64,000 nucleotides of DNA. Source: an uncultured Gammaproteobacteria bacterium. GTDB lineage: Bacteria > Pseudomonadota > Gammaproteobacteria > JACCXJ01. The DNA lies in NCBI GenBank assembly GCA_963764725.1, contig CAVXTM010000009.1:106867-170866 (forward strand), given 5' to 3'. Numbering within the stretch: position 1 is the stretch's first letter; each line of letters opens with the position of its first letter. The notes beneath the pieces are model-generated. The model was not told the DNA's origin. It saw only the letters and a list, made by a program, of their open reading frames with translations, and ran no database searches. This document shows, in pieces, positions 33,258 to 50,534 of this stretch. A program made the translations under genes and the position numbers.

Positions 33258-34556
33258 TTGACCATGAGACTGAAATTCTACGATGAATTATCCTTTGGGA
33301 AGAAGCTATTCATCCTGGCGGTGTTGTTAACCCTGCCCTCGCTTTATCTTTTGTACGACCAAGCATCGGTTCAGCACTATGCCGTCGCCAGCGGTATGGC
33401 TTTTTGCCTGGCCCTGGGCGCGTGGCTGTATTTCCACCTGATCGATATCTTCGTCAGGCCCTTCGAAGGTGCGATCCGGGTCCTGGAGAAAGTCGCGAAC
33501 GGCCAGCTTGACAACGAATTTGCCGTCGACACCCGTGACGAGGTCGGTTGGCTCCTACATACCATCAAGACCACGCAGAAGGGCTTGGCGCAGTTGGCGG
33601 TGGAGGCGCGCTCGGTGGCCCATGCCGTCCAGAAGGGTTCCCAGGAGATCGCCCAGGGTAATATCGATCTGTCCCAGCGCATCGAAGAGCAAGCCGCCAG
33701 CCTCGAAGAGACCGCATCCAGCACGGAAGAGCTTACCAGCACAGTGCGCCAGAATGCCGATAACGCCCAACAAGCGAACCAGCTCGCGGTCAGCGCGCGC
33801 GAGCATGCGGAGAAAGGCGGGGAGGTGGTCGGCAAAGCCGTCGCGGCGATGAGTGAAATCAATACCTCCGCGAAGCGGATCGCCGACATCATCGGGGTGA
33901 TAGATGAGATTGCCTTCCAGACCAACCTGCTGGCCTTGAACGCGGCAGTAGAAGCGGCGCGCGCCGGGGAGCAGGGACGCGGGTTCGCGGTGGTGGCCGG
34001 CGAGGTACGGAACCTGGCGCAACGAAGCGCCGAGGCCGCCAAGGAAATCAAGGTCCTCATCCAGGACAGCGTCAGAAAGGTGGAGGAAGGCGCGCGGCTG
34101 GTGGACGCCTCTGGGTCAACGCTCGCGGAGATCGTGACCTGGGTGAAGAAGGTCTCGGCCATCATCGCCGATATCGCGGCGGCCAGCCAGGAACAGTCGG
34201 CGGGAATCGAGCAGGTGAACAAGGGCATCACGCAAATGGACCAGGTGACGCAACAGAATGCGGCATTCGTGGAGGAGATGGCGTCCGCGAGCCAGGCCAT
34301 GAATGAGCAAGCGGTGCACCTCATCCAGGCGATTCAGTCTTTCAAGCTCAAGGACGATCACGCGGCGCAAGCGGTGTCGATGCCGGTTCCCAAGGAAGGG
34401 AAGTCCTTTGCACCCGTGGCCGAACGACGTCGATCCAGCCGGCCGTGGCGTGCCGAGAAGAACGAACCCATGCAAGGGCGAACCGCAGAGAAGACTGCGG
34501 TCAAGCGTGTCGCGGCAGCGCAAGGGAATGTCGAGGGCGGCTGGGAGGAATTTTAG
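33258..34556 (+). CDS. Methyl-accepting chemotaxis protein (2 TM, HAMP, C-terminal GWEEF)
   Basis: [30 protein letters not shown] hairpin; GWEEF tether. Confidence 0.95.
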
Positions 34557-34644
34557 CCGTGGTTTTTGCTAGTAGCTTGGATTAAACCGTGGTCGAAGAT
34601 CTGACTTCGACCGCAACGATTCATTGCGCGGGGAGGACGACAGC

Positions 34645-35184
34645 GTGGCGAGAAAGCGAAAGCGTGAGGTTGTAGGATATGAAAGTACCGCCAAGGAGAC
34701 GCTTGCGGCGGAACAAACCGCGCCGTGCACAGAGGCCCTCGCGGCGGAGATTTCCGGGACTGATCGCCTAGCCGCGGGATGCGGATCTCCGGAAAACCCG
34801 CGAACGCGAATGCAGCAGCCAGACCGCCCGCGCAAGCCGAAGCGCGGCCTGGCTCCCGAACAGAACCGCAACGACACGCCAGCCGCCTCCCCAGCCGGGC
34901 CCGTGAATCCGATCCTCGATCTGGGCGAGAGACTCACGATCGCAAAGGTGGGCGAGACCAAGGAACGCCTGGCGGCGTTTCTGCAAGTTCCCTCGGCGTT
35001 TTTGGTCGTGGACGGCTCGCGCGTCGCTGCCGTGGATACCGCGGGCTTGCAGTTGTTGACGGCTTTTTGTCATGAGATGCATGAGCGCGGGATCGAGGTG
35101 CTGTGGCGAGAAGCAAGCGCGATCTTGCGGCATGGCGCCGCGACTCTAGGTTTAGTGAAACGCTTGCGGTTGCATGAGCTTTAG
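34645..35184 (+). CDS. STAS-domain protein with low-complexity N-terminus
   Basis: LTIAKV...VDGSRVAAVDTAGLQLL; RBS GGGAGG before GTG 34645. Confidence 0.82.
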   Translation: MARKRKREVVGYESTAKETLAAEQTAPCTEALAAEISGTDRLAAGCGSPENPRTRMQQPDRPRKPKRGLAPEQNRNDTPAASPAGPVNPILDLGERLTIAKVGETKERLAAFLQVPSAFLVVDGSRVAAVDTAGLQLLTAFCHEMHERGIEVLWREASAILRHGAATLGLVKRLRLHEL

Positions 35185-35229
35185 GAAACCTTCGCCTGCG
35201 AGGGGCGCTTGGTAGCGAAAGGATCTTAA

Positions 35230-35859
35230 ATGCAACTTCGGACCGTGTCGGCCAACGATGAAACGATGCTCGACGGAGCGCAGCGCGAAACGCCCGATCC
35301 CGGTTCTTGCGATGTGCGCGAGTCCGTCATGCTACTCCATGTTGCCGTTGCGCAGATCGATTTGACGATGCACGAGGGTGATGCTTCGGTCGCGGTCTTG
35401 TCGGGAGCCTTGTCCTCGATCGCCGCCGGCCTCAAGAGCATTGGGCAGTGTGTGCAGGAGAATCCTTCCGCCGAGGAGCCCGCCCAAAAGAGGAACATGT
35501 CGGCAGCATGCTCAACACTGGCAAAAAAAATCGAAGCAGCGATCATGGCGATCCAGTTCTATGATGCCATGACGCAGAAGCTCACGCACATCTCGGAAAA
35601 TCTCCGGGCTCTCGCCGATTCTATGACGGACCCAGGCCCGGTCAACCGGCACGGCGCATGGCATGCTTTGAAGCAGCAGACGCGCGCGCGGTTCACGATG
35701 GAAAGCGAGCGGCGGGTGTTCGATGCGCTGATGCGCGGGATGACGATGGAGGAGGCCGTACTCGCGGCCAAACCGCTAGGCGCTGAGCCAACGCCCGTGG
35801 GCGTCATCGATCTCTTTCGAGGGTCGGATCGAGATGAATGCACATACGGCAGCGGCTAA
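35230..35859 (+). CDS. Helical chemotaxis protein, CheZ-like
   Basis: QFYDAMTQKL (DxxxQ) and a C-terminal IDLF motif. Confidence 0.6.
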   Translation: MQLRTVSANDETMLDGAQRETPDPGSCDVRESVMLLHVAVAQIDLTMHEGDASVAVLSGALSSIAAGLKSIGQCVQENPSAEEPAQKRNMSAACSTLAKKIEAAIMAIQFYDAMTQKLTHISENLRALADSMTDPGPVNRHGAWHALKQQTRARFTMESERRVFDALMRGMTMEEAVLAAKPLGAEPTPVGVIDLFRGSDRDECTYGSG

Positions 35860-36688
35860 GCTGGAGCGGGAGTTCGCATTCAACGACAAGCATTTCGAGT
35901 TGTTACGCGAATGCGTGCGCGAGCACACCGGGATTGCGCTCTCCGATGGCAAGCGGGAGCTGGTCTATGGTCGCTTGGCGCGCAGGCTCCGCAACCTCGG
36001 GATCGATAATTTTGACGCCTACTGCTCCCTCATCACCGCCGGCGACAAAGAAGAGATCGCCCACTTCGTCAATGCCATCACTACCAACCTCACCGCCTTT
36101 TTTCGCGAGTCGCATCACTTCGAGCACTTGGCCGCGCTCCTGCCACGCTTAATCGAGAAGAACCAGAGCACCCGCCGGTTGCGGATCTGGTCGGCGGGCT
36201 GTTCGACCGGGGAGGAAGCGTATTCGATTGCCATCACGGTACGAGAAACGATTGGCGATCCACCTGGCTGGGATGCCAAGATCCTGGCGACGGATATCGA
36301 TTCCAATGTCCTCGCGGCAGCCGCGAATGGGGTTTATCACCCGAAGGGGGCGGACGGGTTGTCCCGAGAGCGTTTGAGCCGTTGGTTTCTGCGCGGCAAG
36401 GGGAAAAACGCGGGGATGCTTCGGGTGGTCCCCAGCCTTCAGGACCTCATCACCTTCCGGCAGCTTAACCTTATGCAGTCGTGGCCACTCCGCGGCCCTT
36501 TCGATGTTCTCTTTTGCCGAAACGTTGTCATCTATTTCAGCAAGGAGACCCAACGGATGTTGTTCAATCGCTTCGCCGATGTGCTGGCGCCAGAAGGGCA
36601 TCTTTTCATCGGTCACTCGGAGTCTTTGTTCAAAGTCAGTGAGCGTTTCAAGCTCTTAGGCAAGACGGCTTACCAAAGGATCCAGTGA
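35834..36688 (+). CDS. cheR: CheR methyltransferase
   Basis: TTNLTAFFRESHHF, IWSAGCSTGEEAYS, FCRNVVIYF. Confidence 0.96.
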   Translation: MNAHTAAAKLEREFAFNDKHFELLRECVREHTGIALSDGKRELVYGRLARRLRNLGIDNFDAYCSLITAGDKEEIAHFVNAITTNLTAFFRESHHFEHLAALLPRLIEKNQSTRRLRIWSAGCSTGEEAYSIAITVRETIGDPPGWDAKILATDIDSNVLAAAANGVYHPKGADGLSRERLSRWFLRGKGKNAGMLRVVPSLQDLITFRQLNLMQSWPLRGPFDVLFCRNVVIYFSKETQRMLFNRFADVLAPEGHLFIGHSESLFKVSERFKLLGKTAYQRIQ

Positions 36689-36689
36689 T

Positions 36690-37355
36690 ATGCAATCGCA
36701 CGCGCTGAGCCATGCCCGCCAACCGCCATCCCCGCTGCCTGGCTTCGCACACATCAATCGATATTGGGACAGCTTGCATCAGCGGTTCGCCGCCAAGATC
36801 CTGCCCGGCGAATATTACGTTACCCGTCGCGAGGAGATGATCGTCACCGTCCTCGGATCATGTATCTCGGCCTGCATCCGCTGCCGTGCGACCGCGATCG
36901 GCGGCATGAACCATTTCATGTTGCCCCAGAGCCGCGCGGAGGGCGACGGCACGTGGGCCGGTACGGCGGTCAACGCGGCGACGCGATACGGCAATTATGC
37001 GATGGAGCACATCATTAACGACCTCTTGAAAAACGGGGCAAGCCGTAAATACCTTGAAGTCAAGATCGTCGGCGGCGGCCGCGTCTTGAAACAGATGAGC
37101 GATGTGGGGCAGCAGAACATCGAATTCGTCAAAGCCTATTTGCAGGCGGAGGGTCTCACCGTCAGCGCCGAGGACGTCGGCGATATCTATCCGCGCAAGG
37201 TGTACTACGATCCCCGCAGCGGCAAGGTGTCCGTGAAAAAACTACGCTTGCTGCCCAACGATACCATCTTCGAGCGCGAGAACCGGTATCGGAGTCATAT
37301 TGAAATCGCTCCTGTGGGCGGTGACGTCGAGTTATTTTACGGGGCGATTCGATGA
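36690..37355 (+). CDS. cheD: CheD glutamine deamidase
   Basis: [27 protein letters not shown]. Confidence 0.95.
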
Positions 37356-38428
37356 GCAAGATACGGGTGGTAGTGGTCGATGACTCGGCGGTGGTGCGCA
37401 AGGTCTTAACCGCAATCCTAAACTCGGACACAGGCATCGAAGTCGTCGGCGTGGCCTCCGATCCCTATCTAGCGCGTGAGAAGATCAAAAAGCTCAATCC
37501 GGATGTCATCACGCTCGACGTGGAAATGCCGCGCATGGACGGGGTCACGTTTCTCAAGAATCTCATGCGCCTGCGGCCCATGCCCGTGGTGATGGTTTCC
37601 TCGCTCACCAAAGAGGGGGCGGAAATCACGCTCGAGGCAATGGAGGCCGGGGCGGTGGATTTTGTCGCCAAGCCATCGCTGGATCTCACTAATGCGCTCG
37701 CGAACTACGGGGAAGATTTGATCGAAAAGGTTAAGACCGCCGCTGCCGCCCGGGTCCGGCGTTACACCCGAGACATTGCCTTACCCGAAGTCGTGCCAAA
37801 GTACAGCGCCGACGCGGTATTGAAAAAAATACCGGCAAGCAGGCCCTTCAAGACCAGCGAGAAAATCATCGCAATCGGGGCCTCGACCGGCGGCACCGAG
37901 GCCATCAAGGAGATTCTCGCCGCGATGCCAGCCGATGCTCCGGCCATCGTCGTCACGCAACATATTCCCGAGGCTTTCAGCGGGGCGTTTGCGCAGCGGA
38001 TGAACAGGATCTCGGCGATGGCCGTGCGCGAAGCCGAGGACGGTCAGCGGATCGTGCCGGGCCATGCCTATATCGCCCCGGGCAGCCACCATCTCCTCGT
38101 GCGCCGGGACGGTGCGCGCTATGTGTGCCGCTTGCACGACGGCCCGGCGGTCAACCGGCATCGGCCTTCGGTCGATGTACTGTTCCGCTCGGTGGCGCAG
38201 AACGTGGGCGCTAATGCGGTGGGTGTGATCTTAACGGGGATGGGAATGGACGGCGCGCTGGGGTTGAAGGAGCTGCGCGACAGCGGAGCGCCGACGCTCG
38301 CCCAGGATGAGAACACCTCCGTGGTCTGGGGCATGCCGGGGGAGGCGGTCAAACTAGGTGGTGTCGATCATATTCTGCCGTTACAGCATATTGGCGCCGA
38401 AATGTTGAAACTGGTCCAGCAGCTTTGA
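37352..38428 (+). CDS. cheB: CheB methylesterase
   Basis: REC domain; GASTGG, QHIP, HRPSVD, LTGMG.DGA. Confidence 0.97.
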
Positions 38429-38531: not shown

Positions 38532-40850
38532 TCAGCTCGCGCGGGTTAAGACACGGGGGCGAAAAAAAGAGCGCGGCGCGGTGACCGCACCCGACCAGTT
38601 GCAGCCTACTAAGGCCTCGGCCAAGGGGGCCGCTTCGCCAATGGCAAAGCCCTGCGCGTAGTCGATCCCGATGGCCCTTAGGGTTTCGAGTAGCGACTCG
38701 CTTTCGACACATTCTGCAATCGTCTTGATTCCCATTAGATGGGCAACACGACTGATAGCTTCCACCATTTCGCGATCCACCGGATCGCGCATCACATCGC
38801 GGATGAAGCGACCATCGATCTTGACGTAGTCGACGGGCAGCGTTTTTAGGTAGGCGAACGAGGATAAACCGCTCCCGAAATCGTCCAAGGCAAATCGACA
38901 TCCCTTGGCCTTTAACGTCGATATAAAGTTTAGGGCGCTGGTGAGGTTAGAGATCGCCGCTGTTTCGGTGATCTCAAAACAGATGCGTTCGGACGAGACC
39001 TGCGAGCATGCCAACTCATTGATTACGAAGTCTAAGAACCCCATGTTGCCGACCGACTGCCCGGACAGGTTGATGGAAAAGGTGGACTGCGCGGGACAAC
39101 ATTGGTCGAGTGCCGCCAGCGTCGCACGGACTACCCAGCGGTCTATCGCCAGCATCTGGTGGAAGCGTTCCGCGGCCGGGATGAATACCCCGGGAAGGTA
39201 TTGTTCCCCCGTGTCGTCGCGTAATCGCAACAAGACCTCGCCGTCTATCTGATCCCCTGCCGCGTTCAGAGGAATAATCGGTTGAACGTAGAGTTGAAAT
39301 TGATTTTCGGCTAGGGCGCGATGCAATCGAGGGATCCATTGCATCTCGCTTTGCCGCCGCAAGAGGTCGATGTTTCCAGGCTCGAATACGTGCACTCGAT
39401 CTCGGCCTTGTTCCTTGGCAGCGTAGCAAGCATTGTCAGCGGCGCTTAGCAGATAGGCCGGATCGTCGCAGGCCTCGGTGATCGGCACGACGCCGATACT
39501 TGCGCCAACTCTGAAAAGCTTGGTTCCCCACGAGTATCGGTAGTCTTGGATGTTTTCCCGGAGTTGGTTTGCGATACGTACCGCCTGGTCTAGAGGACAT
39601 TCACCGAGGATCACCCCGAACTCATCGCCGCCCAATCTTGCCAGCGTATCGCGGTCACGCAATTGGCTCTTCAGTAGAGCCGAAAGTTGTCCTAGGAGCT
39701 CATCGCCGGCGCTATGACCACAGGTATCGTTTACTACCTTGAACTGATCGAGGTCTATGTAGCAAAGTGCGTGTTGCCGCCCTTGGTCTTTGGCATGCTT
39801 TTGCATGAGACGTAAGCGGCGCTCGAACTCCCGCCGGTTCGGAAGCCCCGTTAAGGAATCATGCGCAGCTTGGTACGCCGTCTCTTGAGCGACGAGACTG
39901 GCTTCGGTGACGTCGCGCATTATGGCGACCCAATGGTTGATTTCTCCGCTGGGGTCGGGCACGGGATCGATGCGCAAGTTCATGACGAACGTGGAGAGGT
40001 CCTTTCGATAGGCCGTGATTTCGCCAGCAAAGGGTTTGCCGACGCGCAGCTGATCTCGCATTTGCTCTAGGACGGAGCGGTCCGTTTGTGGCCCCGCGAG
40101 CATGAATATGCTGTTGCCTTCGGTTTCCTGCAGGGTATAGCCGGTGGTGCGGGTAAAAGCGGGATTAACATAGACGATCCTGTCGCTCGAATCATCCGCT
40201 GCTACTTGAATGATTATCGTGCTGTCTTCGGTATGCTCGATCGCCGCTTGCAGAAGGCGAAGCGTCCGCTCAGTGCGTTGTCGAACCTCGATATCGTTGC
40301 GGAGCTCGGCATTCACGCGCGCCAGCTCCGCGCTATGTGTGCGTAAATCGCGTTCGCCTTGCCACTTGGCACTTAACGCCACCGCAAACTGATACACCTC
40401 TTGAGAGAAGAACGGTTTTTGGATGAACAAGAGTTTATCGGGGGGCTGCAGGCGCGCGCCTACCACTTGAACATCCACATCGCTATAACCCGTGACCAGC
40501 ACGATGGAGATATACGGATCCAGGGCTCGCATCTGTTCTGCTGCCCAAATACCATCGAGGCCTGGAGGCATTCTTACATCCAGGAACGCTACTGAAAACG
40601 GTTGGTCGGCTATTAAAGCCTCGCGAACCGCGGCGACGGCTTGAGCGCTTTGGGAGCAAAAAGTAACGTCGAAAACGGGTTCAGCGACCGCAACCCTCTC
40701 ACTCCCGAACAGATCGACTTCAAGCTTGCACAGCATTGTCTCCCCAGGCATGCAAGCGCGCGTTGGAGAAAGGGCGTCTCGGTACGCGTCCAGGTTCGAG
40801 GTTTCATCGTCAGCGGCCAAGATACGCACGGGACGGGGATCCGACTTCAT
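38532..40850 (-). CDS. REC-PAS-GGDEF-EAL c-di-GMP enzyme
   Basis: FLDVRMPPG receiver, PAS (YVNPAF), RLGGDEF, EVLLR, DDFGSGLSS. Confidence 0.93.
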   Translation of the reverse strand: MKSDPRPVRILAADDETSNLDAYRDALSPTRACMPGETMLCKLEVDLFGSERVAVAEPVFDVTFCSQSAQAVAAVREALIADQPFSVAFLDVRMPPGLDGIWAAEQMRALDPYISIVLVTGYSDVDVQVVGARLQPPDKLLFIQKPFFSQEVYQFAVALSAKWQGERDLRTHSAELARVNAELRNDIEVRQRTERTLRLLQAAIEHTEDSTIIIQVAADDSSDRIVYVNPAFTRTTGYTLQETEGNSIFMLAGPQTDRSVLEQMRDQLRVGKPFAGEITAYRKDLSTFVMNLRIDPVPDPSGEINHWVAIMRDVTEASLVAQETAYQAAHDSLTGLPNRREFERRLRLMQKHAKDQGRQHALCYIDLDQFKVVNDTCGHSAGDELLGQLSALLKSQLRDRDTLARLGGDEFGVILGECPLDQAVRIANQLRENIQDYRYSWGTKLFRVGASIGVVPITEACDDPAYLLSAADNACYAAKEQGRDRVHVFEPGNIDLLRRQSEMQWIPRLHRALAENQFQLYVQPIIPLNAAGDQIDGEVLLRLRDDTGEQYLPGVFIPAAERFHQMLAIDRWVVRATLAALDQCCPAQSTFSINLSGQSVGNMGFLDFVINELACSQVSSERICFEITETAAISNLTSALNFISTLKAKGCRFALDDFGSGLSSFAYLKTLPVDYVKIDGRFIRDVMRDPVDREMVEAISRVAHLMGIKTIAECVESESLLETLRAIGIDYAQGFAIGEAAPLAEALVGCNWSGAVTAPRSFFRPRVLTRAS

Positions 40851-40976: not shown

Positions 40977-41480
40977 TTAAGGGAGCTGAGATTGGCCACA
41001 TAGTTTGCTCGCCAAGCCGACAAACTCGACCGCTAAAAACGGCTTGCTGAAAAACAACAGCTTGGCTGGTGGCGGCACCAGTCCGGCAACGGTATCGAAA
41101 GACTCATCGGAGTAAGCCGTTATGAACACAATGGTTACGTTCCCATCAAGGTTCCGAATACGCTGAGCGGTTCGTACACCATCCATCCCGGGCGGCATTC
41201 GGATATCGAGGAAGATGATCTTGAAAGGACATTGACGCTGGAGGGCCTCTTGTACCGCCTCCAGCGCCTGTTGCCCTTGCGTGCAGGTGACGATGTCAAA
41301 GCTCATGGGATCTTGGCGCGCCGGGCTCAAATTTCCGAAGAGCCCTTGCTCCAGTTCTTCCAATAGCCTGTGCTCGGCGTCGTCCGGGTCCGGCGAAAAG
41401 GCGCGACGAAATGCCTCGAGCACCTCATCGTCATCGTCAGCGACTAGGATCCGGCAACGTTGATCGGCGGTTGCATTCAT
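40977..41480 (-). CDS. Single-domain response regulator
   Basis: LVADDD, FLDIRMPPGMDG, ITAYS, KPF. Confidence 0.9.
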   Translation of the reverse strand: MNATADQRCRILVADDDDEVLEAFRRAFSPDPDDAEHRLLEELEQGLFGNLSPARQDPMSFDIVTCTQGQQALEAVQEALQRQCPFKIIFLDIRMPPGMDGVRTAQRIRNLDGNVTIVFITAYSDESFDTVAGLVPPPAKLLFFSKPFLAVEFVGLASKLCGQSQLP

Positions 41481-41505: not shown

Positions 41506-43455
41506 CTATAACGGGATCAAGATGTGAAAAACCGTCCCTTGCATCGCATTCTCTACAGAGATCTTGCCCCCCATATTGTTGAGCGTATTGGCACACCAGT
41601 GTAGTCCTAGCCCGCCCTTCCCATTGGCTTTTGTCGTAAAACCTCTCTGGAAGATGGTCTGCTGATGCCCAGGCTCGATCCCCGCGCCATTATCGCGAAT
41701 GGTTACGCGGAGCATCGGCTCGGCCCCGTCTTTCTCATGTTCGGCCGTCACCTGAATTATCCCCGCGACTCTCTGCGCACGCCGGATGGCTTCGACCGCA
41801 TTTAGGAGCACGTTGGTTATGACCTGCACTAAGGCGATGCGGCGCGTGGCAATGGTCCCGACAACCTCTACGTTCGGATCGATCTGTATCCAAGGTCGGA
41901 TCGCCGCGTGGTCTGGCAACAGGCTAATAGCTTCGTCGATTATCGCGGCCACGGTTGTCGATTCGATGATCGGATCGCTACGGCTGAGGCGTTCCTGATC
42001 GGTGATGATCCGCTCGATATGTGCCAGGTGCTGTAGAGTTTGGTAGATCTCCTCGATGGCCTGCTGGCGTTGGTGGGCATGTTGTTTCAAGGCGAGCTGG
42101 GCGTACTCGATGAGCTTACGGCGACGATCCTCTGGGATTTCCATGCCTCCTAGCTCCTGGACCGCAGTCGGCAGCCGTAAGCCCGGCGGCTCTCGCAACT
42201 TGCTGATCAGTTGTCCAAGTCGGCTGGTAAGAGGGGTCAGGGCATTACGAATATTATGCAGCACCCCCGCGGCACTGTCGGCGATCCCGGCCTTATACGA
42301 ATGCATGAGAATGGTTCGCTTCGCGATCGCCAACCTATCCTGCATCTGTTTGAACTCGCGCTCGAGCGTCCCCACCTCGTCATGGCGGGCGGTCATTAGG
42401 TGTTTTGTAAGATCCCCGCTTTGGCCGACGTAGAGGACATGTCGCGTTAAGGTCAAGATGGGGGCCAGGATCATGTAGCGCAACAGCAACCATACCACCA
42501 GCACGACCAACGCACTGGCCATTAACAGCGAGAAGAGCGCTGCCCTGATGGTCTGCGCGCCAGCGGCGGTGGCGACTCGCGGTGTATCTACACGTAGCAA
42601 TAACAGCGGCTTCCCGTGAATATCCCGCAACAGGCTAAAGGCGCGCACTACCTGGTCGGTCTCCACGTATTCCACCGTGGCTTTTCCGGCTTTCAATGAC
42701 CTCGCCGTCGCTTTGTAGGGCTCGGGGAGCGCGGCTTCGATGGCAGAATATACGGCTACATTGACCTTGGACCGCTCCTCCAGGGCGGCGATGTGTTTTC
42801 GATCCAGGAATCGGCCGAATACGCATGTTCCGGCTACGGGGCCCTCGTGGTTGGTGGTCAATATGGGGAAGGACGATACCAGCATCGGGCTCCATTCGGT
42901 TCCGAGGAGCCCTTTGATTGAGCTATCGAGCGAGGCATGCGACATCATTAGCGCATTCGGTGGCCCCCCTGCCGGGAATGCCGCCGCCATCGGTATTTCG
43001 CGATTATCCTTCAGAGACGCGAGCCGCCCCCATACTAATCGCTCAGATTGGTCAAAGAACAGCATCATGTTGAGTTCATTGTCCTGCATCCACGAGCCCT
43101 CGAGGTTGGTCGCGACATAGGCTGGATTGGACCCGCTAAGAAACTGGTGGGTCTCGTCCCAGTGGCTCCAATTCAAGTTGATCTTCGCGACCGTCTTGAG
43201 GTCGTCAGCGACCAGCTCCGCAACGCGCGTCATGTTCCTGGCCGCGCTTCCTTGATCGAGTTGCTGGAATACGGGGAACATCACGTAGTTCATGGTGATC
43301 TGTGAGAGGCCAAGATAGACCATGAGTAGCGTCGCCAACACCACGAGCACCTTGGTACGGAGCGAGACCGTGGTGCTCATAACGGAGTCATCGCTCGATG
43401 GGCTATGACCCATCGCAGAGCGAACAGAGGGTTTGCGAAAAATGTGCATAATCAT
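41506..43455 (-). CDS. CHASE4/HAMP sensor histidine kinase
   Basis: TM, NWSHWDETHQF (CHASE4-like), TM, HAMP, AGVLHNIRN, NAVEA, DNGAG, GLGL. The start may be 43413 or 43380. Confidence 0.9.
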   Translation of the reverse strand: MIMHIFRKPSVRSAMGHSPSSDDSVMSTTVSLRTKVLVVLATLLMVYLGLSQITMNYVMFPVFQQLDQGSAARNMTRVAELVADDLKTVAKINLNWSHWDETHQFLSGSNPAYVATNLEGSWMQDNELNMMLFFDQSERLVWGRLASLKDNREIPMAAAFPAGGPPNALMMSHASLDSSIKGLLGTEWSPMLVSSFPILTTNHEGPVAGTCVFGRFLDRKHIAALEERSKVNVAVYSAIEAALPEPYKATARSLKAGKATVEYVETDQVVRAFSLLRDIHGKPLLLLRVDTPRVATAAGAQTIRAALFSLLMASALVVLVVWLLLRYMILAPILTLTRHVLYVGQSGDLTKHLMTARHDEVGTLEREFKQMQDRLAIAKRTILMHSYKAGIADSAAGVLHNIRNALTPLTSRLGQLISKLREPPGLRLPTAVQELGGMEIPEDRRRKLIEYAQLALKQHAHQRQQAIEEIYQTLQHLAHIERIITDQERLSRSDPIIESTTVAAIIDEAISLLPDHAAIRPWIQIDPNVEVVGTIATRRIALVQVITNVLLNAVEAIRRAQRVAGIIQVTAEHEKDGAEPMLRVTIRDNGAGIEPGHQQTIFQRGFTTKANGKGGLGLHWCANTLNNMGGKISVENAMQGTVFHILIPL

Positions 43456-43460
43456 TATGC

Positions 43461-44831
43461 CTAAAATGAAAGGACGATCGCAATTTCGAACAAATGGTAG
43501 GTTTTATTATCCTGAAAAGCCTCCTCGGCGGCCTTTCCAGGAAAGGCCGCACCGTAAAGCGCGCTCACAGTGGCTCGCTCATTGATGGCCCAATCGATAT
43601 AGACGTTTAGCTCGTCAGCGAAATGGCTTGCACTCACCGGTGTCCCGAAATAGTTGTCCGCATCAAGGGAAAAACTATAGAAAATCGCCCCGAATGCGAG
43701 ATCCTCGTGGGGCAGGGTGCTCAGGTGGACCATGTGATTGACCTGATTACTATTGAAAAGCAGCCATTCGCCGGTGATTTCTCCTTGATACCAGGTTCCC
43801 CAGCCACGGCTCCAACCGTAGAACAGCGGATCAAAATCCTCCTCCGCAGTAGCGCCTAGATCGCCCCCGGAGAATTGAGCATAACGGTATCCCAGGGTCG
43901 GCGACCACGGCCAGTCGGCCAACGTGTACTGGGCCTCCGCATACCAGGCCCGTGCATCGATGGCACCGTCGTCGCCGCTGCCCGTCTCCACCGCGTATTC
44001 CGCCCATAAGGATAGATTCGGTGCTTGCGGTAAGCTTAGCTCATTGACGCGCCCGCTCACGAGGTGCATGCCTTCGCGGACGCCAAAATTTAGGGGGGTG
44101 GCGTCGAAGACATGAAGATAGGTAAGTCCGAAGGTTCCATATTCTTCTGAAACGCGCTCAATGTTGATCCCGATCAACTCCGTCAGTTCCTGGTCCGCGT
44201 CGGCCTCGAGGTAGAACACATCGCCGCGCACGGGCTGGGTGTTGATCCTGACGAGGGCTGCGCGCTTATACGAATAGCGCGGTGACAGCCAGGCAGCGCC
44301 CTTGCCCAGCTGATCAAGATCGCCGTCGTAGATTAGGAAACCGTCTCCTATCTTGAACTCCTGGCGACCATACGAGATGTCCAGAACATCGCGGGGCTCC
44401 CCATCGCCGACCAGCCCTGCGGAGCTCCATCCGATGTAGGCTTGCTCCAGGCCGATGTCGTCGTCGCCCCCGTCGGTGAAGCCGCCTGCGTCTCCATCGC
44501 CTATCGTTGCGGTCGCGACCCCGGCCACCCCCGCATACAAGCGACCAAGCCGATCGACCTCATAGTCGGCGCGAAGCACAGGCTTGAGGTAGGCCTCTTG
44601 CCACTCGGCGTCCCCGGTATTTGCACCGCTGCGAAGGTCGATACGGCCGAGCCCGAAATTGGTATCTTGGGTGGTGAAGTACCCAAAAGCAGCCTGCAGG
44701 CCGGCTTGGATCTCAAACCCGCCTTTTTGGAAGACGGAAATTTCGGCCCGTACCAAGGGCGAGAATATCAACGGGATCGCGGCCCAGGCGAGCTGAGCGG
44801 CTTTTTTAGTAGTGTGGCAATGTTCCCGCAT
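43461..44831 (-). CDS. Outer-membrane beta-barrel, alginate export (AlgE)-like family
   Basis: Signal peptide, GRQEFKIGDGFL, FSG..FDPLFYG, alternating beta strands, C-terminal Phe. Confidence 0.75.
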   Translation of the reverse strand: MREHCHTTKKAAQLAWAAIPLIFSPLVRAEISVFQKGGFEIQAGLQAAFGYFTTQDTNFGLGRIDLRSGANTGDAEWQEAYLKPVLRADYEVDRLGRLYAGVAGVATATIGDGDAGGFTDGGDDDIGLEQAYIGWSSAGLVGDGEPRDVLDISYGRQEFKIGDGFLIYDGDLDQLGKGAAWLSPRYSYKRAALVRINTQPVRGDVFYLEADADQELTELIGINIERVSEEYGTFGLTYLHVFDATPLNFGVREGMHLVSGRVNELSLPQAPNLSLWAEYAVETGSGDDGAIDARAWYAEAQYTLADWPWSPTLGYRYAQFSGGDLGATAEEDFDPLFYGWSRGWGTWYQGEITGEWLLFNSNQVNHMVHLSTLPHEDLAFGAIFYSFSLDADNYFGTPVSASHFADELNVYIDWAINERATVSALYGAAFPGKAAEEAFQDNKTYHLFEIAIVLSF

Positions 44832-44964
44832 GGTGCGCGCTAGTGGGCCGCGGCGGCGAGTCACTGGTGGTGGCCGTTATCTGTCCTCGGCGTCGGGAAG
44901 GCAATCCGCCATCGGGGCCGCGTGGATCGCATGCTGTCGTTGATCCTAACGGAGCGTTTGGATA

Positions 44965-45501
44965 CTAGCCGCGCGCGACCTTCTGCAAGGACAAGCCGGA
45001 ATATCGGGCCTTGGCAAAGCTTGCCGCCTCGATCTGTGCATAATGCTCTTCAACGATGAACTGCTGCACGATGCCTCTGGCCAGATATCCCTGTTTAAGT
45101 GTTTCCGAAAGCAGGTGGAAGTCCTCGATCATGCCGCGGCATTGAGCCGCGCCGCACCGACACCGCATGGTCCAGTCTCCTTCACTCATCGTCGTTGAGT
45201 AATCGAAACGGAGCTCTTCGTGCGCGCGGATGTCGCGGAGGGCCACCAAGATGATATCGTTCATCAGACCCGTGTTGGGTTGACAGGAGTGGTTAATGTA
45301 CAACCCCGGTGGCTCTACATCGATATAATGCCTGGATCCGATCTGGACGGTGTTCCCTTGTTTTTCAGCCATAGCACGAACTTGATCGACGGTAATCACA
45401 TAACCCTCGAGAACCAGAATCATCTCGCCGGCACGAATCCGTTTCAACGCGAAAAGCCCCTGGCCGATCTCGCATTCCCTTACATGCACCCTAGTGCTCA
45501 T
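44965..45501 (-). CDS. SET-domain lysine methyltransferase with post-SET Zn motif
   Basis: GQGLFA, YINHSCQPN, EELRFDY, CRCGAAQCRG. Confidence 0.92.
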   Translation of the reverse strand: MSTRVHVRECEIGQGLFALKRIRAGEMILVLEGYVITVDQVRAMAEKQGNTVQIGSRHYIDVEPPGLYINHSCQPNTGLMNDIILVALRDIRAHEELRFDYSTTMSEGDWTMRCRCGAAQCRGMIEDFHLLSETLKQGYLARGIVQQFIVEEHYAQIEAASFAKARYSGLSLQKVARG

Positions 45502-45520
45502 CGTCTAGCCCCATACGTCA

Positions 45521-45859
45521 TCAAAGGAAGCGCCCGAGCAACATCAAGGAGGCAACAGCCATGCCGATCCCTACCACCTCTCCCAGGTCCAGGCTCTCGT
45601 TAAAAAACACGATCCCAAGCAAGGTCAAGAACAGCACGAACGAAACGGAGTACACCACGCTGGCGATTGCTAACTTGATATGCAGAAAGACAAACACCGT
45701 GCCGAAGGCAGTAGAGGCGTAGATGATCAGCCCAACCGCGAACCACATGGTCTTAAAAGGGTCCGGAAGCTCCGCGGCGCGTTTTAAGAAATAATCCCCG
45801 ACTACCGCGGTGAGGCTCAGCAAAATGGTGATGACTATGGCAAGGGCGGGTTTACTCAT
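45521..45859 (-). CDS. Small 4-TM DMT/SMR-like transporter
   Basis: 112 aa, four hydrophobic helices, GDYFLK, LGIVFFNESL...VGI. Confidence 0.8.
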   Translation of the reverse strand: MSKPALAIVITILLSLTAVVGDYFLKRAAELPDPFKTMWFAVGLIIYASTAFGTVFVFLHIKLAIASVVYSVSFVLFLTLLGIVFFNESLDLGEVVGIGMAVASLMLLGRFL

Positions 45860-45931
45860 GGCTACATTGACCGGTTGTTATTAACGGCTTGCAACGTATG
45901 GATGGCTGGCGTATGAGCGAGGAGCGCCGGG

Positions 45932-46759
45932 CTAGCGATTCGGGGCAGAGTCTCCGCACAGGCCCGGGCTCTCGCATGGCGAATGACCCGTAACGACGAT
46001 CTTGCGGTTGCCGTTACCGGCGGTATAAAGTTTAAAGCTGGTCCAGGCCACGTTGTTGGTATAGTCCTTTTCCAAGAACACCCCCGCCGGATTGGCGGTG
46101 CTGACTAGATGGTAGGTTCCATTCGGTACGTCGGTGAGATCGAGGTCTTGGCCTGTTGTCGCGTGGTGGTATTGGTCCACCCAACCCGCCGACACCCCCT
46201 GATAGCCCTCGCTGCAATCCCAGAATTCGCGTTCGGAGGTGGGTGAATTCCCCTCGAGTGCGTACCAGTCGATCAAGCAAAAAGTAACCTTCACCGAGTT
46301 CTCTCCCGCAAGCACCTCCGAGGGGCCACTCTCGGGGTCGAGGGCAGGCGCGCGGATCTCGAACTGGGCGATGTCCCCGATGTGCCAGTGATTATGCGCG
46401 GGATGAAAGGCGTAGTTACTGGCCTCGCACTCTAGGACGACCTGTCCGTCTTGGTCGCGGATCTCTTGAACGGCGTGGGTTTCGTTAAGGGCAAGATCAT
46501 TGACCGGTCGAACGGCCCAGGGACCGGCACCGGTGTTAGCGATCCCATTCGAGAACCGAAGGATATCGCGTTTGTCAGAATGCACTAGCTGAAGGTGCCG
46601 AGGGACCACCGTCCGTATGTCGGGATAAAGCTCGCGGGGCCCGTCCTTTCGCGCTTGCGCGCAATCCATTTCCGCCCCTTCCGCTTGCGCGCAATCCATC
46701 CCCCCCCTCAATGCTGTGGCCAACGCGATGTAAGCCGCTGCTGTCTTAGATGAAATCAT
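45932..46759 (-). CDS. Exported lysyl oxidase family protein (LOX-1)
   Basis: ILRFS, HPAHNHWH Cu site, KVTFCLID (LTQ Lys), QGVSAGWVDQY (LTQ Tyr), EKDYTNN. Confidence 0.85.
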   Translation of the reverse strand: MISSKTAAAYIALATALRGGMDCAQAEGAEMDCAQARKDGPRELYPDIRTVVPRHLQLVHSDKRDILRFSNGIANTGAGPWAVRPVNDLALNETHAVQEIRDQDGQVVLECEASNYAFHPAHNHWHIGDIAQFEIRAPALDPESGPSEVLAGENSVKVTFCLIDWYALEGNSPTSEREFWDCSEGYQGVSAGWVDQYHHATTGQDLDLTDVPNGTYHLVSTANPAGVFLEKDYTNNVAWTSFKLYTAGNGNRKIVVTGHSPCESPGLCGDSAPNR

Positions 46760-46822
46760 GAGCCGTTATCCTCAGTTGCCGTAGTTAAGTTCTTAGCAAT
46801 AGCGGCTGAACTGTCTTCTGAA

Positions 46823-47284
46823 TCATTGAAAAATCCTAACCCGCTGGGAGTCATATTTTTGGCGGATGCCGCCCGGGTGCAGCCCGCCAACACCTGAGCG
46901 GGCGTCAACACTGAGTCGCCGGCTTGCGGAAGGCTTACGGTCCCAGGTGGAGCGGAGTTGATAGGGATGGGCGCCCAGCACTTGCTTCGTAAACCGAATG
47001 TGGAGCGCGTGCCGATCGGGCAAGACGAAAACCGGAACCGGTGTGCCGTCCGGCCACTTGGTCTGGTGCACGAAGAAGGTAGTCCGCTGCTCGCGCCCGA
47101 GAGGCGGGTTAGAATAATTCGAGCCGGCGTAGGGTCTTACGATTGAATCAGCGCTGGCGGGGCCCGCCGGCCAGAGCAGGAGCGGCAGGAGCCCACCCAA
47201 GAGAAAGCGCGCGAGTGCAGCCCGCCGCCCACGCCCCGCGTCGAAGCACGCAACACACTTTGCTCGCAGATAGAAACCGGACAT
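46823..47284 (-). pseudogene. Truncated small periplasmic substrate-binding-like protein
   Basis: Signal-like LLGGLLPLLLWPAGPASA, then WPDGTPVPVFVLPD.H.LH..F.KQVLG..PYQLR..WDR, after which similarity stops. Confidence 0.45.
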
Positions 47285-47482
47285 CTCCCTCCCCTCTCCC
47301 CGCGCGAGAAATAGTGTAGCACAGGGTTCGGTACGTAACAGCCAATCCCGCAATGCTTCGCGCTCCAGATATCAACATCTTCGCGCCCAGCACCTCAACT
47401 CCTATCTCAACTTCCACCGCCCTTGTGACGCGGCCGGCACTGGGGAGTAGAATCACCCCGCCGGACGCTCATGCCCACCCTG

Positions 47483-47501
47483 GGGGCCGTCTGGCCCCTA
47501 C
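47483..47501 (-). repeat. GTAG-type REP-like hairpin
   Basis: Minus strand GTAGGGGCCAGACGGCCCC. Confidence 0.35.
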
Positions 47502-47585
47502 GCGGTCCTAGGCTTGCTCGGGTCCGCAAACGGGGGGTCTAACATCCTCGCTTACGTTCGACGCCTACTCGATAGGGACGTACAG

Positions 47586-49421
47586 ATGAAGTACTCAGCC
47601 GTTGTGTTTACGTTGATCCTGACTGGCTCCGTCGCAGCGGATGCTCTCACCCGATCGGGGGACCAGCTCCAGCCCGACCCGGGCGGCCTCGTCGAGGTCA
47701 CGATGGACAGCACGGTCGGCGTCGTGCTCGACGAGATCCCTGAGAGCCTGCGCACACGCGCGGCCGGCTATTACCTGCAAAAGGGGGACGCGTTCTGGCG
47801 CGACCGCGCGCAGTTCCAGATCCGTCATACGACCTATCGCCTCACCTACCGGAACTTTTATTACGAGGACAAGGGTATGCTCGCGTTGCCGCCCCGGGCG
47901 CTCTGGAACATCGACCTCGATCCAAGCGGGGCGCGGCATGTCAAGATCCAAGGACACGACGCGGTGGTCATCGACTACCGGCTCGAGACGACCCTGCTTA
48001 GCGACCGCGACTCTCCCGGCGAAGCCGAGCGCAAGCTACGCCGGGTGGGCGGCGTGTGGAAGGAGCCGTTCAGTTTCCCGCTCGATCCCGAGTTCCTCTT
48101 CCAGCGCACCGGCTACGCTTGTGTGGACGAGGACGGGTATCCGCCGCGCACGGCCGAGTCGGAGAATGCCTGGCAGCTCTTCGATCAGGACTGTACCGTC
48201 GAAACGCCCGACGAGCCATTGTGCCACCTCACCGAGTTTCCCGACGAATCGTGCAAACCGGCCCTCAGGCGCCACGCGGGCCGCGTCAACACGCACCTCC
48301 GCTTCGAGCGCATCGCTTGGGACGCCGATAAGGCCGACCAGGTCCGCGTCGCTGAGTACACGAACAGCGACGGCCCCGACCTCGAGGTGATCGGTGACGG
48401 GCTCTTGAACAACCGGATCGTGTGGCGCTACATCGAGCCCGACTCCTGTGCCATCCAGGAGCAGTCCGTGGGTGGGCCCGGCTGGCGCCGGCTGCTGGAG
48501 TTCGATGCCAGCGTCCGCAACGTCAGCCGCCAGCCGCTCACCGTCGGGGAGGCCGCGCCCGGTGCGCCCTTCGTGGAGCACAACAACTTCATCCTGGCTG
48601 CGTGCCACGGTCACTACCATTACAACCATTACGGCGACTTCAGCTACTACGGCCTGCCGGGTGACAAGCGCGCCTTCTGCATCGAGTCGACGGACCGCTA
48701 CTTCAACAGCGAGGAGACCCCGCTCGTCCATCCGTACTCCTGTGGCTTCCAGGGTATCGCCAGCGGCTGGGGGGACACGTACATCGCCGGCATCGAGGGC
48801 AACTGGATCGACATCACCAACATGGACATCCCGGCCGGGGGGGCCAGGAAGGACCTGCGCTTCCGGCTGAACCCCGACAATTTCATCTGTGAGGGCACCC
48901 CCGTCCTCGACGAAGGCGGCAACCAGATCTTCGACCCGACCGTCATCATCGGCGAGAACGGGAAAACGGTCGACCGGCCGCGCTGCGAGTTCGTGGCCGA
49001 CCACGACGAAAATAACTTCGAGGAGCGCCGGATCCACATCCCGCGCGACGGCTCCTTTATCACCTCGCCTTGTACCCGCAGCCAGGCAGGCCCGCTGCGC
49101 GACTGCGGCTGGAGGGAGCAGGCGGAGAACCGCACTTGCGAGCCGGGCAGCACCGTCACCCTGAGCTGCCACACCGGGCCGCAGGCGCCACTCCAGGCCC
49201 TGCGTATCTGCGAAAACAGCTTGGAGCGCGGCGGCGTCATCGCCTGCATGTTCCGCGAGGCGCTCGCCACGGCGATTGTCGGCCCGGTACCCACCGCGGT
49301 GACCTTCGCCTGCCCCATGCCGCGCGTGCCGAACGAGCCGGGCGGATCCTACGGGTACTTCGCCGCGGCGGTCCTGCCCGCCGACCTGGCCCGCCCGGTC
49401 ACGTGCCAGGTCGTTCCGTAG
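47586..49421 (+). CDS. Large exported Cys-rich lysyl oxidase family protein (LOX-2)
   Basis: Signal peptide MKYSAVVFTLILTGSVAA; RRLLEFD, CHGHYH, KRAFCIEST, QGIASGWGDTY, NWIDIT, ENN. Confidence 0.85.
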   Translation: MKYSAVVFTLILTGSVAADALTRSGDQLQPDPGGLVEVTMDSTVGVVLDEIPESLRTRAAGYYLQKGDAFWRDRAQFQIRHTTYRLTYRNFYYEDKGMLALPPRALWNIDLDPSGARHVKIQGHDAVVIDYRLETTLLSDRDSPGEAERKLRRVGGVWKEPFSFPLDPEFLFQRTGYACVDEDGYPPRTAESENAWQLFDQDCTVETPDEPLCHLTEFPDESCKPALRRHAGRVNTHLRFERIAWDADKADQVRVAEYTNSDGPDLEVIGDGLLNNRIVWRYIEPDSCAIQEQSVGGPGWRRLLEFDASVRNVSRQPLTVGEAAPGAPFVEHNNFILAACHGHYHYNHYGDFSYYGLPGDKRAFCIESTDRYFNSEETPLVHPYSCGFQGIASGWGDTYIAGIEGNWIDITNMDIPAGGARKDLRFRLNPDNFICEGTPVLDEGGNQIFDPTVIIGENGKTVDRPRCEFVADHDENNFEERRIHIPRDGSFITSPCTRSQAGPLRDCGWREQAENRTCEPGSTVTLSCHTGPQAPLQALRICENSLERGGVIACMFREALATAIVGPVPTAVTFACPMPRVPNEPGGSYGYFAAAVLPADLARPVTCQVVP

Positions 49422-49547
49422 CGGCGTGGGCGGCTCACGACTCCTCTGGCAAAGGCGCCGTTTCCGAGACACGGCGTCGGTCACGAGGATGTACTCAGGA
49501 GCCAGGCTCCGGCCGGACCGGCGGCTTCGGGGAGGACTCCATCCGCG

Positions 49548-50534
49548 TCAGCTCGAAGCGATGTTTGGGGACGGCGCCGGGGTAGAGTACAAGAAGCAGT
49601 GGGCGTGATGAGACTGCGTGAACGCCGTGGCCGGCGGGTAGTCACGCCGGCAAGGAGAAAAGACCTTGGGACAGCGCGGATGAAAGTAGCATCCCGCGGG
49701 CGGGTCGGCGGGGGAGGGCAGTGTCCCGCCGAGGCGCACCGTTTCGCGCTGCGTGACTGTATCGATGTGCGGTACGGCCGCGAGCAGGGCTTGGGTATAG
49801 GGATGCTTCGGGTTCTGCAAGACCTCATCGGCGCGGCCTTGTTCCACGATGCGTCCAAGGTACATCACTGCGACGTAATGGGCGAGATACTCGACGACGG
49901 CGATATTATGGGTAATGAAAAGATAGGAGAGCTCAAGCCGATCTTGCAGATCTTTCAGCAGGTTCAGGATCTGCGCTTGCACGGAGACGTCGAGCGCGCT
50001 GGTCGGTTCATCGCAGATGATGAGCCTGGGATCCACGGCGAGCGCCCGTGCGATGCAGATCCGCTGGCGCTGTCCGCCCGAGAACTCGTGCGGATAGCGA
50101 TGCTTGGCGTCGGGGTGCAGTCCGACTTGTTGCAGTAGCTCATCGATACGCTGCTCGTGCACTCGGCCGCCGGTTTGCTGGGCGCGCATACCTTCTTCGA
50201 TGATCTCGGCGACAGTCATGCGCGGGTTCAGGGAGGCGTACGGATCCTGGAAAATGATCTGCATCTCCCGCCGCCGCCGGCGGAGCGTTTCTCCGCTGAG
50301 CGAGCGCAGGTCTTCGCCGTCGAACCGCAGGTCCCCCGAGGTAATGGGCGCCAGCCGCAGGATCCCTTTGCCCGCGGTGGTCTTCCCGCATCCGGATTCT
50401 CCGACCAAGGCGAGCGTCGTTCCCCGCCCGATGCTGAATGACACCCCGTCCACCGCGCGCACATAACCGACGGTGCGGCGCATGAACCCCCGCCGGACGG
50501 GGAAAAAGATCTTGAGATCGTTGACTGAAAGCAT
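49548..50534 (-). CDS. Peptide ABC transporter ATPase (DppF/OppF-like)
   Basis: GESGCGKTT, FSGGQRQR, DEPTSALD, HPYTQAL, C-terminal Cys motif. Confidence 0.92.
   Translation of the reverse strand: MLSVNDLKIFFPVRRGFMRRTVGYVRAVDGVSFSIGRGTTLALVGESGCGKTTAGKGILRLAPITSGDLRFDGEDLRSLSGETLRRRRREMQIIFQDPYASLNPRMTVAEIIEEGMRAQQTGGRVHEQRIDELLQQVGLHPDAKHRYPHEFSGGQRQRICIARALAVDPRLIICDEPTSALDVSVQAQILNLLKDLQDRLELSYLFITHNIAVVEYLAHYVAVMYLGRIVEQGRADEVLQNPKHPYTQALLAAVPHIDTVTQRETVRLGGTLPSPADPPAGCYFHPRCPKVFSPCRRDYPPATAFTQSHHAHCFLYSTPAPSPNIASS

Follow-up and report, generated by a model that had tools for sequence, protein, structure and literature searches.

Two lysyl oxidase-family genes beside a membrane protein–SET methyltransferase gene pair in an uncultured gammaproteobacterium: probably juxtaposed modules

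The window, i.e. the whole stretch of DNA analysed here, comprises 64,000 nt of an uncultured gammaproteobacterium (GenBank assembly GCA_963764725.1, contig CAVXTM010000009.1, positions 106,867 to 170,866) and stems from a 4.2-Mb assembly that is 97% complete (genome G000). It carries two genes of the lysyl oxidase (LOX) family, denoted LOX-1 and LOX-2, a gene for a four-helix membrane protein (4TM), and a gene for a SET-domain methyltransferase (SET), with an additional open reading frame (ORF), ORF4, between the oxidases (Table 1). A first-pass annotation, made from the sequence alone, had described LOX-1, 4TM and SET as co-oriented, and the intergenic distances of 72 nt (LOX-1/4TM) and 19 nt (4TM/SET) read directly from the sequence agree with this. 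LOX-2 is divergent, as likewise described, and belongs to a separate prokaryotic LOX family; its reading frame is taken from the ATG at 47586, while the longest ORF begins at a TTG at 47514. The gene identities given in that annotation hold, whereas ORF4 and the row of same-strand porin, kinase, REC and GGDEF-EAL genes past SET had been overlooked. A profile scan of the whole assembly returned two matches to PF01186 (LOX-1 and LOX-2) and a single match to PF00856 (SET). This composition had been read as one dedicated system for lysine chemistry. By a modest margin over even, we favour another explanation, namely that the locus juxtaposes a conserved 4TM–SET cassette with two separately acquired, individually dispensable exported oxidases.

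Table 1. Features of the locus and of the minus-strand gene row beyond it (window coordinates).
Feature	Position	Strand	Description
SET	44965-45501	-	178 aa; SET and post-SET S-adenosylmethionine (SAM)-dependent methyltransferase without export signal
4TM	45521-45859	-	112 aa; four-helix DMT/SMR-like membrane protein; conserved SET partner
LOX-1	45932-46759	-	275 aa; exported (by N-terminus) single-domain lysyl oxidase family
In-frame duplication	46652-46707	-	within signal/cleavage region of LOX-1
ORF4	46823-47284 (open frame to 47353)	-	between the LOX genes; signal-peptide-like N-terminus; uncertain start
LOX-2	47586-49421	+	611 aa; exported-looking multidomain lysyl-oxidase-family protein; divergent
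Alginate_exp-family outer-membrane porin	43461-44864	-	PF13372, 34.7 bits; about 100 nt past SET
CHASE4-HAMP histidine kinase	41506-43455	-	Pfam; 5 nt past porin
REC protein	40977-41480	-	Pfam; after histidine kinase
REC-PAS-GGDEF-EAL protein	38532-40850	-	Pfam; last gene of minus-strand row

Both oxidases matched PF01186 above its cut-off of 20.4 bits (56.9 bits for LOX-1 and 40.5 bits for LOX-2) in the HMMER comparison that the first-pass annotation had proposed. The catalytic residues were located by alignment to human LOXL2 (chain 5ze3) and in family alignments of 23 LOX-1 and 35 LOX-2 sequences. The LOX-1 copper-site residues H122/H124/H126 as well as K157 and Y197, the candidate residues of the lysine tyrosylquinone (LTQ) cofactor, are invariant in 23 of 23 sequences, and the corresponding LOX-2 residues H341/H343/H345, K361 and Y399 (611-aa numbering) are at least 90% conserved among the 35. 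The histidines of both proteins align with the CHRHYH copper site of 5ze3, which we take to be the copper ligands of LOXL2, and the lysines and tyrosines pair with Lys in HKASFCLED and Tyr in DMY. Based on this alignment and the family conservation, both proteins keep the copper histidines and the LTQ residues, in line with what had been noticed at first. Three histidines are also given as copper ligands for human LOX in a 2015 survey (Grau-Bove et al. 2015, PMC4448552). Thus, the H-x-H-x-H site and the LTQ Lys/Tyr place the catalytic cores of LOX-1 and LOX-2 in register with animal LOX/LOXL2, albeit at low overall similarity to 5ze3 (E 1e-6 and 3e-5). In contrast to the animal enzymes, LOX-1 replaces disulfide cysteines (A121 for the Cys of WHDCH; GW and GQ for GC and CQ), SRCR domains and an animal propeptide are missing here, and no collagen- or elastin-like gene is located nearby.

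A hydrophobic stretch and, after it, an Ala-X-Ala-like site mark the N-termini of LOX-1 and LOX-2. Both proteins are thus predicted to be exported, as had been suspected, on the grounds of hydropathy and sequence inspection. In LOX-1, this region includes a duplication of two 26-nt copies, 88% identical at a spacing of 30 nt, that repeats MDCAQA and yields two candidate Ala-X-Ala sites. Tandem Repeats Finder did not detect the duplication, which was identified in a separate repeat search, and the LOX-1 copy of the congeneric genome G003 does not carry it. LOX-2 is composed of an N-terminal domain of about 300 residues, the LOX domain at residues ~300–440, and a Cys-rich C-terminal region; for the N-terminal 300 and C-terminal 170 residues no Pfam match was obtained at E ≤ 1.

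Both oxidases are members of two different, already known prokaryotic LOX families. Homologues of LOX-1 numbered 934 at E ≤ 1e-5, all of about 255–280 aa, and are 55–65% identical across Gaiellaceae/Actinomycetota, Chloroflexota, Nitrososphaeria/Thaumarchaeota, cyanobacteria and others. The LOX-2 family, with full-length proteins of 600–700 aa, comprised 1577 representatives at E ≤ 1e-3 and 168 at E ≤ 1e-30. Prokaryotic LOX genes are described as patchily distributed and thought to have spread horizontally, and most encode the LOX domain alone; the survey reports a simple architecture for all but three prokaryotic sequences (PMC4448552). With its single LOX domain, signal-like N-terminus, copper and LTQ residues and patchy spread suggestive of transfer, LOX-1 conforms to this survey and to a study on an archaeal enzyme (PMC6452851), whereas the multidomain LOX-2 of 611 aa differs from the mostly simple architectures of 2015. 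The archaeal enzyme, HTU-LOX of Haloterrigena turkmenica, is presented there as the sole characterised prokaryotic LOX, a promiscuous amine oxidase of cryptic function for which nitrogen scavenging or oxidation of amine antibiotics has been proposed (PMC6452851). According to the authors of that study, a transferred LOX gene is not necessarily indispensable (PMC6452851), and the behaviour of LOX-1 described in the following agrees with this remark.

Natural deletions separate the oxidases from the remainder of the locus. In G003, the gene order is porin, SET, 4TM, LOX-1 and ORF4, followed by ABC ATPase genes, and LOX-2 is missing. Two metagenome contigs (L112 and L113, with flanks 95–96% identical to the window) carry LOX-2, ORF4, 4TM, SET, the porin and the kinase, and are devoid of LOX-1. 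Comparison by blastn located the deletion of L112 at window positions 45904–46854, including all of LOX-1, and that of L113 at 45866–46680, where a 65-nt remnant of the LOX-1 5′ end is left. The deletion in G003, seen also at locus L032, spans 47707–49471 and leaves a 36-nt remnant of LOX-2. The gene remnants at the junctions imply that the ancestor of this small clade had both oxidases. Two losses of LOX-1, with different breakpoints, and one or more losses of LOX-2 followed, and 4TM–SET stayed intact each time. In addition, contigs of an independent sediment metagenome (run X1), matched to the window at 85% likeness and stemming in part from related organisms, bridge the LOX-1 gap (45898 to 46853) and, via several junctions, the LOX-2 gap (47249 to 49535, 47289 to 49551 and 47706 to 49485). 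It follows from these bridging contigs that forms without LOX-1 and forms without LOX-2 exist in nature. In runs X7 and X8, the flanks were covered by contigs and the LOX-1 interval was not; as no bridging contig was found, these runs were not used as evidence.

The neighbourhood of LOX-1 was compared across species-representative genomes. An alignment scan yielded 84 confirmed relatives; 80 loci were retained, mostly with 8-kb flanks, and since some of the 80 are short contigs, the neighbour counts are floors. Profile hidden Markov models built from the SET and 4TM alignments were used to search these loci, and a Pfam scan covered 16 of them. The SET profile matched at two of 80 loci (L032 and, at a distance of 4.2 kb, L077) and the 4TM profile at one (L032). 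L032 shows the same arrangement as the congener G003, is probably the same record, and was counted once. The proposed recurrence of LOX, SET and an exporter across genomes was not borne out by this comparison, the congener being the only one among the 80 loci with both 4TM and SET. Among 87 flanking ORFs of 16 diverse LOX-1 loci, the Pfam scan found heterogeneous neighbours and no recurrent partner. A preceding clustering of stop-to-stop ORFs around the LOX-1 loci was noisy in high-GC genomes and was superseded by the profile searches.

Further differences point to individual histories of the oxidase genes. Full-length LOX-2 turned up neither in the 40 relatives searched nor in 400 further genomes of the phylum (E ≤ 1e-20), and its G+C content at third codon positions (GC3) is 0.88, compared to 0.63–0.75 in all neighbouring genes. 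High GC3 and absence from the 400 phylum genomes are consistent with a high-GC donor. For LOX-1, synonymous divergence (dS) between G000 and G003 is 0.54, as opposed to 0.09–0.12 for 4TM, SET and the porin. This excess dS suggests a separate history, e.g. that the LOX-1/ORF4 segment alone underwent allele replacement or recombination. The ratio of nonsynonymous to synonymous divergence (dN/dS) is 0.23 for LOX-1 and 0.37–0.41 for LOX-2, so that the oxidases, where present, are under purifying selection and can be described as functional yet dispensable. A third, distant LOX type, 30–39% identical to LOX-1, was observed at L006–L011 (genomes G001, G002, G007, G009, G012 and G013); these genomes belong to the taxonomic family of the window, and no SET or 4TM homologue was found there. 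This observation is largely derived from unpublished genomes (G001, G002, G007, G009 and G012).

Contrary to the oxidases, 4TM and SET recur as a pair. A metagenome scan with 4TM gave 555 confirmed relatives. From these, 80 loci were retained, and 57 have at least 500 nt of downstream sequence. SET directly follows 4TM in five loci, i.e. in the close relatives L112 and L113 and in L114, L115 and L119, with SET profile E-values of 1e-67 to 1e-80. The 4TM proteins of L114, L115 and L119 are 56–58% identical to the window copy (tblastn). An initial neighbour clustering had returned ten SET-linked 4TM loci; seven of the ten rows were out-of-frame ORFs overlapping 4TM and were discarded. In a sample of 400 genomes of the class, strong 4TM matches were confined to G000 (171.5 bits) and G250 (128.8 bits), with the next at no more than 28 bits. 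SET-domain matches occurred in 49 of the 400, headed by the same two genomes (G000 260 bits, G250 225 bits; next 139 bits), i.e. the 4TM and SET subfamilies co-occur in two out of two cases. The SET protein of G250 is 50% identical to that of the window over 153 residues, including the C-terminal extension, and its gene pair is located between CoaBC and a TonB-dependent receptor. No LOX gene is present in the 3.2 kb seen of G250, nor in L115, where the flanks extend about 6 kb to either side of the pair. The distant pairs without a LOX gene are L114, L115, L119 and G250; with the exception of L115 these are short views (3.8 kb for L114, 1.3 kb for L119).

A maximum-likelihood tree of 82 4TM rows placed the window together with L112–L115 and L119 in a clade with support of 100/96, and all six members are SET-linked. 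Among the 74 rows of the sister group none is SET-linked, and neither is L131, which groups with G250; in 23 of the 80 loci the downstream DNA is too short to judge SET linkage. The 4TM protein of G250 forms a long branch outside the SET-linked clade, and its placement is weakly supported. The spacing between the 4TM stop and the SET start in seven pairs is 19, 18, 19, 10, -1, -1 and 15 nt. The conserved unit is 4TM and SET, whose translation is probably coupled. The proposed cooperation of the membrane protein with SET thus gains support from the recurrence of the pair in distant lineages at spacings of -1 to 19 nt. No published description of the 4TM–SET pair was found, though no literature search was aimed at it specifically. 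In L115, a PCuAC copper-chaperone gene lies directly after SET and a PvcA/DIT1-like gene nearby (6443–7354, 8515–9600). In L114 and L115, the pair is preceded by a gene for a hybrid histidine kinase and one for a REC-PAS-GGDEF-EAL protein, reminiscent of the kinase and GGDEF-EAL genes past SET in the window. The signalling neighbours common to the window, L114 and L115 were considered as synteny and not counted, as identity between the GGDEF-EAL proteins amounts to only 32% and concerns generic domains.

The description of 4TM as an “SMR-like exporter” is correct with respect to resemblance, i.e. four helices and about 110 aa, and does not extend to membership of the SMR family. On PF00893 the protein scored 21.8 bits, under the cut-off of 23.7, and on the NCBIfam SMR models it reached no more than 26 bits with cut-offs of at least 160. 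Weak matches were obtained to PF00893 and EamA, and no solved SMR chain was matched by the 4TM profile at E ≤ 1. Hydropathy analysis, a crude test, revealed hydrophobic stretches over the 112 aa that are consistent with four helices. The family is small, with 79 proteins found and with invariant GDYFLK, E88, E94 and R110. SMR proteins carry a membrane-embedded coupling glutamate in helix 1; the invariant acidic residue in helix 1 of the 4TM family is D22 of GDYFLK. The nearest Atlas clusters are ArnF-like. In summary, 4TM resembles SMR proteins (EmrE/Qac) and ArnE/ArnF of the DMT superfamily in its ~110 aa, four hydrophobic helices and ArnF-like clusters, and differs from SMR proteins in its sub-threshold scores and the lack of a solved-chain match. 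Of all genes of the locus, 4TM is under the tightest constraint (dN/dS 0–0.21, protein 100% identical between G000 and G003). Among 4TM genes that are not SET-linked, neighbouring class-I SAM methyltransferases were observed in nine of 80 loci (L140, L146, L148, L158, L160, L164, L166, L167 and L169), and some have metal-related neighbours, namely MerB (L146), HMA (L167 and L169) and YbjQ (L137).

SET matched PF00856 at 48.7 bits (cut-off 22.4) in the second of the proposed HMMER comparisons. The motifs NHSC and FDY and the post-SET CxCx4C are kept in an alignment of 31 sequences, in which eight positions (N70, H71, S72, C73, D100, C114, C116 and C121) do not vary and Y101 reaches at least 90% conservation. 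The AlphaFold2 model (predicted local distance difference test score 92.1) shows the SET domain and a long C-terminal helix (residues 147–177). An N-terminal export signal is missing. The best sequence and fold matches are lysine methyltransferases of the MLL/ASH1L/NSD type, which have the NHSC, FDY and post-SET zinc motifs in common with SET; Foldseek returned the MLL1 SET domain at E 9e-11 and the bacterial enzyme BurB at E 3e-9. Unlike these eukaryotic-type enzymes, the protein in the window is a stand-alone bacterial protein of 178 aa with a long C-terminal helix, a membrane-protein gene as partner, and no chromatin context.

BurB is the only bacterial entry among the solved-structure matches listed for SET, and it is of similar size. 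As described, this SET enzyme of Burkholderia thailandensis (172 aa; PDB 9l4t/9l4v) converts free methionine into S-methylmethionine (SMM), with the substrate bound through main-chain contacts, and the methylation route proceeds from Met to SMM and on to the amine and the aldehyde of dimethylsulfoniopropionate (DMSP; PMC12542666). The SET–BurB alignment extends across the post-SET motif and beyond (E 5.5e-8 with a single sequence, 9.5e-18 with a profile). Both proteins share DY[AS][ST]T and CxCGAxxCR, Y101 is found opposite Y124 of BurB, and the Foldseek TM-scores are 0.59/0.65. The window differs from the bur genes by the lack of bur-like downstream genes and by the 4TM partner, which the consulted sections of that paper do not report for BurB (PMC12542666). 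Among the ORFs scanned between 38.5 and 56 kb, no pyridoxal phosphate (PLP)-dependent decarboxylase, aminotransferase or aldehyde dehydrogenase was found. The SET locus presents neither the SAM-contact side chains nor the downstream pathway genes that mark a BurB-type system. Judged by its sequence, SET is compatible with either a protein or a small-molecule substrate. Another gammaproteobacterial SET subfamily (L205 in G274 and L206 in G077, about 120 bits on the SET profile) is neighboured by an MttB-family methyltransferase, a PLP-dependent enzyme, an FAA hydrolase and a DAO oxidoreductase, a context suggestive of small-molecule amine metabolism.

Based on these data, the following division of labour is proposed. 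SET enzymes need SAM, and SET, lacking an export signal, is expected in the cytoplasm, where it would methylate a small or lipid-linked molecule at an amine (or thioether). 4TM, in its features nearest to flippase subunits of the ArnE/F type, would move the substrate or product of SET across the inner membrane. A small or lipid-linked substrate is a tentative assignment, possible though short of probable, towards which we lean because of the DMT-type partner with ArnF-like nearest clusters, because no candidate protein substrate accompanies the pair, and because other 4TM family members adjoin class-I SAM methyltransferases. BurB may serve as a precedent, by analogy, for a small bacterial SET enzyme acting on a free amino acid. 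LOX-1 and LOX-2 would convert periplasmic or extracellular primary amines into aldehyde, ammonia and H2O2, each having been present in the common ancestor of the clade with a history of its own, and each being dispensable. We set the LOX genes apart from the pair because LOX-1 loci elsewhere lack SET and 4TM and because the deletions spare 4TM–SET. The LOX proteins look exported while SET does not, so that a shared molecule would have to be methylated first and exported thereafter. Deletions, the 80-locus counts, LOX-free distant pairs and this mismatch of compartments together argue against the original idea that the LOX genes act in the same dedicated system as SET and 4TM.

Several observations weigh against this separation into modules, or against the role proposed for SET. 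Every LOX and SET gene found in the genome lies within 4.5 kb, and the clustering in the window genome is real. The adjacency of LOX-1, 4TM and SET persists in both G000 and G003, and two metagenome contigs probably carry the trio as well, at 69–83% identity, judged solely by protein matches on contigs of equal size (P0002, P0123 and P0205 at 9182 nt; P0003 and P0122 at 2743 nt). In L113, the deletion has brought 4TM–SET right up to the remaining LOX-1 5′ end, a hint that LOX-1, 4TM and SET may once have formed one transcription unit. Only five of the 57 4TM loci with at least 500 nt of downstream sequence carry SET, i.e. the wider 4TM family is not SET-specific. As for SET itself, dN/dS is 0.47–0.70 among close relatives, calculated from few differences. 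By profile, MLL1 (82 bits; Foldseek E 9e-11) is at least as near as BurB (67 bits; rank 28), and the SAM contacts R133 and H138 of BurB are replaced by W110 and R115.

Most characterised SET enzymes are protein-lysine methyltransferases, and SET may likewise act on a cytoplasmic or inner-membrane protein, with 4TM as anchor, partner or target and with the LOX genes unrelated. The best sequence and fold matches to histone lysine methyltransferases fit this reading, as do the intact NHSC, FDY and post-SET CxCx4C motifs, the sub-threshold SMR scores of 4TM, for which a transport role is not established, and the signalling proteins in the vicinity of the pair (window, L114 and L115). However, the similarity of the GGDEF-EAL proteins is generic at 32% identity, and the neighbours of the pair differ from one distant locus to the next: G250 has CoaBC and a TonB-dependent receptor, L115 a histidine kinase, GGDEF-EAL and PCuAC. 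No protein substrate accompanies the pair, and the class-I, small-molecule-type methyltransferases next to 4TM family members in nine of 80 loci fit the handling of a substrate by 4TM. We consider protein-lysine methylation unlikely. The two systems envisaged in the first-pass annotation are less plausible still. In the first of them, SET writes lysine marks on a surface or matrix protein, LOX cross-links them, and 4TM is an accessory exporter. SET and LOX families both act on lysine ε-amines in eukaryotes, all LOX and SET genes detected in the genome cluster together, and an outer-membrane porin gene follows SET. Conversely, LOX chemistry requires a free primary amine, which full lysine methylation removes, so methylated lysine is not expected as a LOX substrate. 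SET is devoid of a signal peptide whereas the LOX proteins look exported, no lysine-rich or collagen-like substrate gene is found in the locus, and to our knowledge a four-helix DMT protein cannot export a protein. Together with the co-occurrence data and the independent LOX deletions, these points render the lysine-mark system very improbable.

The other proposal, a small-molecule pathway that spans two compartments, holds that SET methylates an amine or thioether, 4TM exports the product, and LOX oxidises its primary amine to the aldehyde. Here, the arrangement LOX-1 > 4TM > SET on one strand with gaps of 72 and 19 nt is suggestive, and the trio is retained in G000 and G003. Moreover, BurB provides a precedent, the scheme resembles the amine-to-aldehyde step of the DMSP methylation route (PMC12542666), and the archaeal HTU-LOX is described as accepting many small amines (PMC6452851). 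On the other hand, both LOX genes were lost independently with 4TM–SET kept, the pair occurs without visible LOX in four distant loci (only L115 having long flanks), and LOX-1-family genes are found elsewhere without such partners. No decarboxylase, aminotransferase or aldehyde dehydrogenase gene is among the ORFs scanned at 38.5–56 kb. Making, exporting and oxidising a methylated amine as one pathway is thus very unlikely. A narrower variant regards the LOX-1/4TM/SET row as a lineage-specific extension of the cassette, in which a methylated amine or sulfonium compound would be exported by 4TM and its free amine oxidised to the aldehyde outside the cytoplasm. It is conceivable because a small methylated molecule could keep another free amine, and it is likewise highly improbable in our estimate. 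If true, bacteria would possess a hitherto undescribed way of making sulfonium or quaternary-ammonium aldehydes and acids, and for the first time a bacterial lysyl oxidase would have a physiological role assigned to it.

ORF4 is conserved in G003, L112 and L113, albeit the C-termini differ among the four copies and the hydrophobic region is shorter in L112. Its dN/dS is 0.33–0.83. No Pfam hit was obtained, the only hint being PBP_like_2 at E 0.36 for the G003 copy alone. ORF4 is probably the decaying remnant of a periplasmic binding protein gene. Past SET, the porin gene remains adjacent in G003, L112 and L113. A complete chemosensory cluster on the plus strand (window positions 30570–38428) comprises CheA, CheW, an MCP, a STAS protein, an unassigned ORF, CheR, CheD and CheB, and is convergent with the last gene of the minus-strand row, the REC-PAS-GGDEF-EAL gene. 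Scans for promoters (3 sites versus 1.8 ± 1.2) and terminators (4 sites versus 5.4 ± 2.4) were no richer than shuffled sequence.

In keeping with the first-pass annotation, to which no described bacterial system of this composition was known, our literature searches found no published bacterial LOX and SET cluster. Bacterial lysyl oxidases and SET enzymes lack assigned native functions, and a real joint operon would be a strong lead. The comparative data take this lead away: the oxidases have the character of accessory genes that can be transferred and discarded, in line with the literature on prokaryotic LOX. The 4TM–SET cassette may be a second hint, after BurB, of non-protein substrates for small bacterial SET enzymes. 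The forms without LOX-1 and without LOX-2 represent ready natural comparisons in sediment and cave populations.

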